Assembly (NCBI RefSeq): GCF_051962475.1
Contig: NZ_JBQCCF010000064.1
Location: 58,284 to 82,283 of the forward strand
DNA length: 24,000 nt
Origin: Dyella sp.
Lineage (GTDB): Bacteria; Pseudomonadota; Gammaproteobacteria; Xanthomonadales; Rhodanobacteraceae
Reading direction: 5' to 3'
A program made the position numbers and the translations under genes. The notes under the pieces were generated by a model, which was not told the origin of the DNA, ran no database searches, and saw only the letters and a program-made list of their open reading frames with translations. Of the stretch, positions 7,414-8,796 are shown piece by piece; the stretch's first letter is position 1; each line of letters starts with the position of its first letter.

Positions 7414-8796
7414 TCAGCCGCCGGCCGTCGTCGAAATGCAGCGCGCGCGCACCACCCAGCCCAGCACCGGCTTGCCCGCTTCGCGGCGCAGGGTGTCGGG
7501 GCGGATCGTGATCTGGTCAAAGCCGCTGGCTTGCAGCACGCGCTCCACGTAGGCGTGCGAGTGGCGATAGCGCCCGCTGGAAGTGAGCTCGGCCAGCTCG
7601 CCCTCTCCTTCGATCGCCTCCAGCGTGAAGCCCACCCAGCCACCCGGCCGCAGCGCGCCGGCGGCGGCGCTAAGCACCGGCCCCAGCTCGCCGAAATACA
7701 CCAGGGTGTCGGCCGAGATCACCAGGTCGAACGCGTCGCGGCGGGCGCCCAGCCAGGCGGTCAGCTCGGCCACCTCGAGCGCGTCGTAGCCGCCGCGGGC
7801 ACGCGCCTTGTCCACCATGCCGCCGGACAGATCCACGCCGACCAGCTGGCGCGCGCGTTCGCGCACCAGCGGCGCGCACAGGCCGGTGCCGCAGCCGGCG
7901 TCGAGCACGTCCAGCGAGGCGGGCGCGGACGGCAGTACCTCGTCCAGAAAGCCCATGAGCACTTCCGGCGCGCGGTAGCCGAGATTGTTGAGCAGCTGCT
8001 CGTCGAAGCTGTCGGCGAAGCCGTCAAACACGTCACGCACGTAATCGTCGGCGGCCCGCGGCGGCGCTTCGGCCGCACCGCAGGACGCGAGCATGTGGCG
8101 CGGCACCGGGTTGTCGGGCTCGCGCGCCAGCCAGTCGCGGTAGACCTCGGCGGCTGCCTCGTGGCGACCGAGCATGTACAGCGCGATGCCCACGCCCTCC
8201 AGCGCGCGCACGTTGCGGTCGTCGCAGCGGAACGCCTCGCGGAAGCATTCGGCCGACTGCTCCAGGTGCTCCTCGTTCTGCGCGTGGTTACGCAGGAAAA
8301 GGCCCAGCCGGTAGTGCCCGTGGGCATAACCAGGCGCCTGCTGCAGCAGCCTGGTATAGGCCTCGAACGCATCGTCCAGCCGCTCCTGCGCCTCCAGCAC
8401 CACGGCCAGGTTGCTCAACGCCTGGTAGTGGCCGGGGCCGCACTCCAGCGCGCGGCGGTAGCAGGCCTCGGCATCGGCCAGCCGCCCGCACTCCTTGTGC
8501 ACGTTGCCCAGATTGTTGTGCGCATCGGGATGACGCGGGGTGATCTTCAGCGCCGAGCCGATCAGCACCAGCGCCTCGTCGCTGCGACCGCGCTGATGGC
8601 TGAGCACCCCCAGGAAGTGCAGCGCATCGGGCTGCGCCACCTGCATGTCCAGCACCTCGCCATACAGGCGCTCGGCGTCGCCGAGATTTCCCGCCTGGTG
8701 CGCCTGGATCGCGCGCTGCAGCACCGGCGCATACGCCTTGGGCGCAGCCTTGGCGGCCTTGCGCGAGCGACGGAACGGGCGAGTGGCGGCGTTCAT
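7414..8796 (-). CDS. TPR-repeat / class I SAM-dependent methyltransferase fusion protein (460 aa)
   Basis: The N-terminal ~250 aa carry several TPR-like units (AERLYGEVLDMQVAQPDALHFLGVL, PDAHNNLGNVHKECGRLADAEACYRRALE, YQALSNLAVVLEAQERLDDAFEAY). The C-terminal half has methyltransferase motif I VLDAGCGTGLCAP, post-I VGVDLSGGMVDKA, FDLVISADTLVYF and LRPGGWVGFTLE. The architecture resembles what I recall as COG4976. The ATG at 8796 lies 11 nt after the PAAR stop, with GAGGAAGG spanning that stop. Its own stop is 25 nt before the vgrG ATG. Confidence 0.8.
   Translation of the reverse strand: MNAATRPFRRSRKAAKAAPKAYAPVLQRAIQAHQAGNLGDAERLYGEVLDMQVAQPDALHFLGVLSHQRGRSDEALVLIGSALKITPRHPDAHNNLGNVHKECGRLADAEACYRRALECGPGHYQALSNLAVVLEAQERLDDAFEAYTRLLQQAPGYAHGHYRLGLFLRNHAQNEEHLEQSAECFREAFRCDDRNVRALEGVGIALYMLGRHEAAAEVYRDWLAREPDNPVPRHMLASCGAAEAPPRAADDYVRDVFDGFADSFDEQLLNNLGYRAPEVLMGFLDEVLPSAPASLDVLDAGCGTGLCAPLVRERARQLVGVDLSGGMVDKARARGGYDALEVAELTAWLGARRDAFDLVISADTLVYFGELGPVLSAAAGALRPGGWVGFTLEAIEGEGELAELTSSGRYRHSHAYVERVLQASGFDQITIRPDTLRREAGKPVLGWVVRARCISTTAGG

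Follow-up and report, generated by a model that had tools for sequence, protein, structure and literature searches.

A tetratricopeptide repeat methyltransferase encoded between PAAR and vgrG in a Dyella type VI secretion cluster: a candidate needle-associated accessory enzyme

A stretch of 24,000 nucleotides from the genome of a Dyella sp. (assembly GCF_051962475.1, contig NZ_JBQCCF010000064.1, positions 58,284 to 82,283 of the forward strand), here designated the window, is filled by a type VI secretion system (T6SS) gene cluster. Between the genes for the PAAR spike tip and the VgrG spike, this cluster contains a gene for a protein of 460 amino acids with tetratricopeptide repeats (TPRs) and a predicted S-adenosylmethionine (SAM)-dependent methyltransferase domain; gene and product are termed MT in the following. 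The interpretation which we favour, with a rough probability of 0.45, is that MT is a needle-associated and likely Hcp-directed protein methyltransferase acting in the producer cell. MT would be produced together with PAAR and VgrG and remain in the producer cytoplasm, where its TPR superhelix would serve as a protein-docking arm that binds a protein of the needle, with Hcp, the tube protein, as the most likely partner and VgrG/PAAR or a carried client as possible others. The methyltransferase domain would then methylate the docked needle protein or client before firing, and the role of MT would be that of a modulatory, non-essential accessory enzyme rather than of a core part. From comparative analysis we infer three points of this model: the protein nature of the substrate, its identity as Hcp or a different needle protein, and the action of MT inside the producer cell.

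Domain architecture and conserved residues of MT

MT is predicted to be composed of a short N-terminal tail, an array of seven TPR hairpins and a C-terminal methyltransferase domain. Its parts and the two spike genes flanking it are located as follows.

9095-8808, minus strand: PAAR spike-tip gene, 95 amino acids, directly upstream of MT (Pfam PAAR_motif, E 9e-27)
8796-7414, minus strand: MT gene (TPR-methyltransferase), 460 amino acids (open reading frame, Pfam and AlphaFold2 model)
8731-8796, minus strand: residues 1-22, basic disordered N-terminal tail that differs among orthologues (predicted local distance difference test, pLDDT, 50-68)
8083-8730, minus strand: residues 23-238, seven TPR hairpins forming an OGT/SPINDLY-like superhelix (14 helices, DSSP of the model)
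7432-8064, minus strand: residues 245-455, class I Rossmann-fold SAM-dependent methyltransferase (Pfam and domain model)
7879-7902, minus strand: Motif I, D299-A-G-C-G-T-G-L306, SAM-binding glycine loop (clade alignment)
7388-5304, minus strand: vgrG spike gene, 694 amino acids, directly downstream of MT (Pfam Phage_GPD, Phage_base_V, Gp5_trimer_C)

Residues about 25-240 matched TPR_1/2/8/16/17 and other TPR families of Pfam and residues 276-394 matched Methyltransf_11/25/12/23/31 (PF08241/PF13649/PF08242/PF13489), in both cases above the curated cut-offs; NCBIfam yielded no specific model for the protein. The AlphaFold2 model of MT, calculated from a 62-sequence alignment, reached a pLDDT of 93.9 and a predicted template modelling score of 0.86, and in the model of the methyltransferase domain (pLDDT 94.7) strands alternate with helices. 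Open reading frame, Pfam matches and model thus agree with the first-pass annotation of this DNA, which had described a 460-residue fusion of TPRs and a class I methyltransferase between PAAR and vgrG and had listed the motifs VLDAGCGTG, VGVDLSGGM, FDLVISADTLVYF and LRPGGW, all four of which occur in the MT translation. With Foldseek, the methyltransferase domain matched many class I methyltransferases with a probability of 1.00, including the compact enzymes 3bkw, 3e23 (template modelling score 0.76) and 8ys9, and its best profile match in the PDB was METTL27 (7qcb, E 3e-16). A phosphatidylethanolamine N-methyltransferase and NTMT1 were also among its generic matches. The closest solved relatives of this domain, METTL27, 3bkw, 3e23 and 3g5l, have no TPR arm, and most of them are without an assigned substrate. 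For the TPR half (residues about 25-240), the best sequence and fold matches in the PDB were the TPR domains of OGT and SPINDLY (SPY).

Conservation is concentrated in the two folded parts. Orthologue alignments begin at about residue 25, and the N-terminal tail is not conserved beyond the genus (nonsynonymous divergence, dN, of 0.6-1.4 with more distant orthologues). In 62 members of the T6SS-linked clade described below, which come from many phyla, 32 alignment columns are invariant, among them D299, G301-C-G-T-G-L306, G320, D322, M327, Y337, D363, Y367, G369, E393, G408-R-Y410 and R437. Among these, D299, G301, C302, G303, T304, G305 and L306 belong to motif I (the glycine loop D/E-x-G-x-G-x-G), and D322 is the acidic residue that closes strand 2. 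Within the TPRs, N95 is invariant in the clade and N129 is 98% conserved. Most of the invariant residues are shared with paralogues that have no link to T6SS, and the chemistry is therefore probably the same across the TPR methyltransferase family. Another set of residues is a signature of the clade: W222 (98%), A300 (95%) and S361 (90%) are all present in MT of the window and in 0 of 35 outgroup sequences, A300 being replaced by Leu in 35/35 outgroup paralogues; A276 also belongs to this set. In comparison with the nearest usable orthologue (genome G062), the ratio of nonsynonymous to synonymous substitution rates (dN/dS) was 0.08 in the TPR region and 0.15 in the methyltransferase region. 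Judged by these ratios both domains are under purifying selection, and from its conserved residues MT looks catalytically active.

The T6SS-linked clade and its stand-alone pairs with Hcp

Homologues of MT were found in 85 of 400 sampled gammaproteobacterial genomes, most of them without T6SS neighbours. A maximum-likelihood tree of 75 homologues (IQ-TREE) contains a 40-member clade (ultrafast bootstrap/SH-aLRT 100/98) which includes MT of the window. T6SS genes lie within 10 kb of 36 homologues, all of them members of this clade, and of 0 of the 35 sequences outside. Four clade members were not labelled in this way; Hcp open reading frames adjoin one of them (locus L116), which raises the T6SS-linked fraction to 37/40. 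According to the first-pass annotation, homologues scattered over non-T6SS contexts would speak against a T6SS function; such scatter exists, but solely among the distant paralogues outside the clade, next to which no gene family recurs. When members from other phyla were added, a FastTree analysis placed all 62 clade sequences apart from the 35 outgroup sequences, with a low node support of 0.28. The T6SS sheath gene tssC is present in 7/8 genomes with a clade MT, compared with 83/400 genomes of the class sample overall, and in 8/10 genomes whose clade MT lacks a T6SS neighbour TssC is encoded elsewhere. By this distribution, the presence of MT follows that of T6SS, with the exception of the Hcp-MT pairs considered below.

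A wider scan, which used one genome per species, the clade alignment and the pattern D-[AGV]-GCGTGL and made no use of gene context, gave 477 relatives, of which the best 80 were kept as named loci. Their contexts were as follows.

Any T6SS gene within 10 kb of MT: 67/80 named loci
vgrG start within 500 bp downstream, same strand: 36/80 named loci
clpV end within 1.6 kb upstream of MT: 21/80 named loci
Hcp within 500 bp of MT: 10/80 named loci
PAAR just upstream of MT: 8/80 named loci
Tandem MT copies: 8/80 named loci

The commonest arrangement is ...tssF-tssG-clpV-MT-vgrG. MT-carrying loci occur in Dyella, Rhodanobacter, Frateuria, Coralloluteibacterium, Xanthomonas translucens and Xanthomonas sp. 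AmX2, in the Betaproteobacteria Variovorax, Aquabacterium, Zoogloea, Niveibacterium, Nitrosospira, Caldimonas, Pelomonas, Leptothrix and Rugamonas, in Desulfosarcina and other Desulfobacterota, in Acidobacteria and Planctomycetes (Stieleria), and in metagenome bins labelled Rokubacteria, Gemmatimonadales, Verrucomicrobiota and Actinomycetota. The gene order in X. translucens is clpV, EEP phosphatase, deaminase, PknS-like kinase, PAAR, MT, vgrG, DUF6931, fha, tssK, tssL, tssM; among the 120 best MT homologues, none carries the name X. citri. The mean p-distance across clusters is 0.51 for MT and 0.56 for VgrG, and MT distances track those of VgrG (r 0.88) better than those of ClpV (r 0.69), coefficients which are descriptive since the pairs are not independent. 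In this respect MT appears to evolve like a cluster component. The genes recurring beside it are limited to those for Hcp, VgrG and PAAR and to clpV; an all-against-all BLASTP comparison of the flanking open reading frames revealed no partner or client gene conserved across lineages beyond close relatives.

Within the Rhodanobacteraceae, MT orthologues with 58-98% identity are present in 23/120 other genomes, and the closest named relatives come from Dyella ginsengisoli (93% identity) and from further Dyella, Rhodanobacter and Frateuria. Almost all of the orthologous loci show PAAR upstream and/or vgrG downstream already in their short flanks, and in most of them PAAR precedes MT. Six loci, five without PAAR or vgrG in the short flanks and one with vgrG only, were extended to 19.5 kb; they keep the order PAAR ... 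MT ... vgrG, with extra genes inserted on either side. The first-pass annotation had proposed to look for homologues in the same PAAR-x-vgrG slot of related clusters, and the outcome is clearly positive and wider than expected. The slot as such characterizes this cluster and its relatives; it does not define the clade, since the usual arrangement elsewhere is clpV-MT-vgrG or hcp-MT.

The contexts that bear most directly on the function of MT are stand-alone pairs of Hcp and MT with no other T6SS gene nearby (L191, L198, L202, L208, L155, L159, L141, L147, L182, L116, L104-L106 and L111; in the L1xx loci MT lies at about 10000-11300). TssC was not found in 14/14 genomes with such a pair, nor was TssF in 5/5 pair genomes searched for it. 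Hcp is encoded beside MT in 5/5 pair genomes searched for Hcp, and one of these gave a further Hcp-like match of lower strength. A completeness of 90-99% is stated for five genomes, and the 14 include one isolate, Halieaceae bacterium GM1-29. In the pairs that were checked, the MT reading frame is intact, and the seven pair MTs represented in alignments A1 and A2 retain all residues invariant in the respective alignment. In the four loci checked, the neighbours of the pair are housekeeping genes. Three Actinomycetota bins share the same gene for a CO-dehydrogenase-flavoprotein-like protein upstream, directly before Hcp in two and one gene away in the third; this shared neighbour indicates that the Hcp-MT context of these bins is inherited rather than a binning accident. 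The presence of these pairs in genomes without a detected sheath gene suggests that MT acts together with Hcp and is not itself fired through a T6SS. It is possible, albeit doubtful, that Hcp and MT form a conserved functional pair in which MT methylates the tube protein or a client in the Hcp ring.

Some further observations concern the MT loci and orphan Hcps. One subgroup of the orphan Hcps beside MT (L147, L141, L111, L159) ends in a Cys-containing tail (...SNCP, ...GSCP, ...ETCQQ, ...GTCR), which canonical Hcps do not have. In genome G339 (L092:9292-13546), three tandem TPR-methyltransferase paralogues with 41-46% identity to MT of the window follow clpV and a 'Bflower'-like gene and precede genes for an acyl-carrier-protein-like and an acetyl-CoA hydrolase/transferase-like protein; tandem pairs are also found in Desulfosarcina, Competibacter and other loci. 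Short open reading frames similar to N-terminal sequences of TssC/VipB, with 28-37% identity, are found beside MT or vgrG in several lineages, in total in 7/80 named loci (L207:8398-9249, L215:8385-9236, L158:3244-4044, L196:8692-9393, L157:11344-12117, L180:1318-2163 and L113:6959-8338, the last with a partial VipB domain in Pfam).

Gene junctions and the T6SS cluster of the window

The MT reading frame extends on the minus strand from the ATG at 8796-8794 to the TGA at 7416-7414. The PAAR stop codon (8810-8808) precedes it by a gap of 11 nt and the vgrG start codon (ATG, 7388-7386) follows after 25 nt, in agreement with the distances given in the first-pass annotation. Its wording that the three genes are co-translated or translationally locked is overstated: none of them overlaps its neighbour, and MT and vgrG each have a Shine-Dalgarno-like site of their own, as read from the sequence.

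8809-8802, minus strand: Shine-Dalgarno-like site of MT, GAGGAAGG, overlapping the PAAR stop codon
7401-7397, minus strand: Shine-Dalgarno-like site of vgrG, GGAGA

Since these sites are separate and no convincing terminator was found between PAAR, MT and vgrG, co-transcription of the three genes is likely and translational coupling is something we infer at most. A gap of 280 nt (9096-9377) separates PAAR from the preceding cargo island and contains a terminator-like hairpin (9325-9313, minus strand), and PAAR-MT-vgrG may therefore start its own transcription unit. A TTG at 8832 was considered as an alternative start of MT and rejected, as it overlaps PAAR and lacks a ribosome-binding site, and as orthologues align only from about residue 25.

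The window contains a single group-3 T6SS cluster, and all recognisable genes are located on the minus strand (Pfam and window open reading frames); the host is Dyella-like. The genes other than PAAR, MT and vgrG are listed in the direction of transcription.

23988-22747, minus strand: tssC
22521-22021, minus strand: hcp, tube gene, encoding the candidate partner or substrate of MT (Pfam T6SS_HCP)
21972-21175, minus strand: tagJ
21159-20656, minus strand: tssE
20746-18764, minus strand: tssF
about 18909-17701, minus strand: tssG, assigned by position
17679-14944, minus strand: clpV (Pfam AAA_2, AAA_lid_9, ClpB_D2-small)
14871-9378, minus strand: cargo island with deaminase- and nuclease-like genes
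5289-4750, minus strand: DUF6931 gene ('orf179'), downstream of vgrG (Pfam PF22011, E 8e-43)
4688-3279, minus strand: fha
3254-1875, minus strand: tssK
1870-524, minus strand: tssL

The open reading frame in the tssG position (17701-18909, minus strand) had no Pfam or NCBIfam match at E <= 0.01; tblastn detected homologues of it at the TssG position of related clusters. There is no tssJ gene between fha and tssK in the window. The DUF6931 gene downstream of vgrG is kept in group-3 clusters with and without MT (G132, G011, G091, G108 and X. translucens). The cluster encodes toxins that lack visible immunity genes. Upstream of PAAR, an open reading frame of 344 amino acids (orf344; 9954-10988, minus strand) is without a Pfam match; other Rhodanobacteraceae, Caldimonas mangrovi (L188) and Aquabacterium (L196) have homologues with 60-83% identity in the interval from clpV to PAAR/MT, and the MT-less cluster L059 has one with 48%. 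Jackhmmer matches were limited to the Rhodanobacteraceae, Caldimonas, Aquabacterium and this one MT-less cluster; orf344 was rejected as a universal companion of MT and behaves like mobile cargo. A CheD-like deamidase of the cargo island was likewise rejected as a partner of the CheR/CheD style, as it is not conserved with MT outside the Rhodanobacteraceae.

Alternative explanations, related systems and significance

Several observations weigh against an Hcp-directed methyltransferase of the producer cell. To our knowledge, there is no report of methylated Hcp, VgrG or PAAR, nor of any other methylated T6SS protein. Fold and profile comparisons of MT returned only generic class I neighbours, comprising small-molecule, lipid and protein methyltransferases, and gave no substrate class. 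The C-termini of VgrG and Hcp show no MT-specific feature when compared with VgrG and Hcp proteins not linked to MT, and an MT-specific tail for TPR binding was rejected on the basis of this resemblance. A dedicated Hcp subfamily was also rejected, as the Hcps adjacent to MT are polyphyletic and stem from several Hcp lineages. Several of the pair genomes without a detected sheath gene are metagenome-assembled bins with no stated completeness. Tandem MT copies and orphan vgrG/hcp/PAAR islands are typical of effectors, too. Furthermore, some clusters do without MT: in genome G033, a remnant that retains TPRs 1-3 and is then out of frame lies between intact PAAR and vgrG genes (L033:1460-2085), a case of natural loss; in G132, a related cluster of another family, PAAR is directly beside vgrG; and a second group-3 subtype found in one genus of the Rhodanobacteraceae (the g12 clusters) has no MT. 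From these MT-less clusters and the remnant we conclude that MT, as far as gene content tells, is conserved yet dispensable and at most modulatory.

The alternative that survives best, in itself unlikely, is that MT is an effector that is carried into the target cell by the spike or tube, to which its TPR arm attaches through PAAR, VgrG or Hcp, and that it methylates a conserved target, probably in a eukaryote, by means of the SAM of the target cell. A eukaryotic target would make self-immunity unnecessary; no immunity gene adjoins MT, and the gaps of 11 and 25 nt leave no room for one. The T6SS group of the window is described as the anti-amoeba type (PMC6653060), and the related group-3 T6SS of X. 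citri acts on amoebae. The location of MT next to vgrG, hcp or PAAR, orphan islands included, its occasional tandem duplication, the nearby deaminase and nuclease genes of the window and its loss from some clusters would all suit an effector, as would the in silico prediction of Tfe7, a methyltransferase-like protein of Pseudomonas fluorescens F113 without an immunity partner, as a T6SS effector (PMC7970981). Tfe7 shares with MT the lack of an immunity partner and the link to T6SS; by its description it is set apart as an rRNA methyltransferase-like protein without a TPR arm. Against delivery stand above all the intact Hcp-MT pairs in the 14 genomes without detected TssC, where there would be nothing to deliver MT. 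In addition, its position upstream of vgrG is fixed across phyla and its divergence is near the rate of VgrG, unlike that of swappable cargo, and among the flanking open reading frames no adaptor gene was found that travels with it. Tag-type genes are recognized by conserved placement in T6SS clusters across taxa, which is what the 67 T6SS-linked loci of the 80 show for MT; a cargo effector should occur only where a T6SS can deliver it, and MT is also present in the pair genomes, several of which are metagenome bins.

MT might also be a regulatory or protective methyltransferase with a target outside the needle, an explanation that we consider rather improbable. Its substrate could be a T6SS regulator such as Fha or TagF, a nucleic acid or protein modified for self-protection against the immunity-less toxins of the cluster itself, or a small molecule or lipid. 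The solved folds nearest to the methyltransferase domain include small-molecule and lipid N-methyltransferases, and in one family tandem MT copies are followed by the acyl-carrier-protein-like gene; this neighbour is limited to that one family, however, and a protein partner is more in keeping with the TPR arm. The toxins without visible immunity genes could call for protection, but the conservation of MT extends over clusters whose cargo differs considerably. Genes for Fha or kinases are absent from the Hcp-MT pairs, which counts against regulation through these proteins.

That MT is a TPR adaptor or chaperone which loads or stabilises an effector or PAAR/VgrG, its methyltransferase domain being incidental or structural, appears quite improbable. 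Genes near vgrG often encode adaptors, the TPR half has the lower dN/dS within the Rhodanobacteraceae, and MT gives weak sub-threshold matches to the type III secretion TPR chaperones LcrH/SycD and SctY. The SAM-binding and putative catalytic residues are, on the other hand, all invariant in the 62 sequences, which suggests that catalysis is under selection. Moreover, DUF4123, DUF1795 and DUF2169 have no match in MT (Pfam, E <= 0.01), no conserved client gene adjoins it, and it is usually located upstream of vgrG, adaptors normally downstream. The idea of a passenger, i.e. a housekeeping-type TPR methyltransferase hitch-hiking in T6SS clusters, takes support from the commonness of the mostly T6SS-unlinked wider family in Gammaproteobacteria and is very improbable, as only one clade shows the linkage and does so repeatedly in different phyla and in three arrangements. 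Out of the three functions that the first-pass annotation had suggested, a modifier of T6SS components is thus favoured, a spike-bound effector is weakened by the Hcp-MT pairs in genomes without a detected sheath gene and a pure adaptor by the invariant catalytic residues.

For a needle-directed enzyme, the closest structural precedent is provided by OGT and SPINDLY, in which an N-terminal TPR superhelix is likewise combined with a C-terminal transferase domain. The TPR groove of OGT holds the substrate polypeptide. As the combination of a TPR arm with a transferase is the design of these protein-modifying enzymes, a protein substrate is favoured for MT as well. The transferase of OGT and SPINDLY is a GT41 glycosyltransferase, a domain not found in MT, where a Rossmann-fold SAM methyltransferase takes its place and where only the TPR half, with merely seven TPRs, matches these proteins; by analogy, the resemblance is one of design and not of family membership. 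As to function, the flagellin lysine methylase FliB and the Rickettsia enzymes PKMT1/2, which methylate OmpB, offer a working analogy, namely an enzyme whose gene adjoins that of an exported or surface structural protein, or which is dedicated to such a protein, and which methylates it prior to or in the course of export; no homology is claimed. Established post-translational control of T6SS is represented by the PpkA-PppA-Fha phosphorylation switch (PMC6653060). The known adaptors and accessory proteins DUF4123/Tap-1, DUF1795/Eag, DUF2169 and TagJ are, like MT, encoded in T6SS clusters near vgrG or clpV; MT differs from them in having no sequence match to them, in its enzyme class, in its position upstream of vgrG and in its occurrence with Hcp alone.

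With respect to the enzyme family, MT has the same two domains as the 'Predicted TPR repeat methyltransferase' proteins (a designation of JGI/COG style; Pfam TPR plus Methyltransf_11/25), and close homologues are so named. Residues common to this family and MT are F257, D258, Y274, D299, G301-C-G-T-G-L, G320, D322, M327, Y337, Y367, E393, R409, H412 and R437, whereas the T6SS/Hcp-linked MTs form their own clade with the signature residues W222, A300, S361 and A276. No known substrate was found for any member of the family. One review marks the gene as conserved and of unknown function, and its two species are among the homologues found here. Our full-text literature search retrieved no paper describing a T6SS-linked TPR methyltransferase, in agreement with the first-pass annotation, which was not aware of any characterised T6SS methyltransferase of this kind. 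As judged from its sequence and context, MT is a T6SS accessory or cargo gene with a predicted enzyme activity for which we found no report in T6SS.

T6SS have been studied heavily, and yet we found no paper on an enzyme dedicated to the methylation of their parts. With a clade that spans Proteobacteria to Acidobacteria and Planctomycetes, MT would represent either a so far overlooked way of modifying the needle or its cargo or a very widespread immunity-free effector. If the proposed function of the Hcp-MT pair is true, it would add a new layer of post-translational modification on the type VI needle, and the pair, which is kept in bacteria without a detected sheath gene (Actinomycetota and Verrucomicrobiota bins among them), would have its own role. 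The pair also gives a handle on orphan Hcp genes in genomes seemingly devoid of a T6SS; for the large family of TPR repeat methyltransferases, MT may provide the first functional handle.

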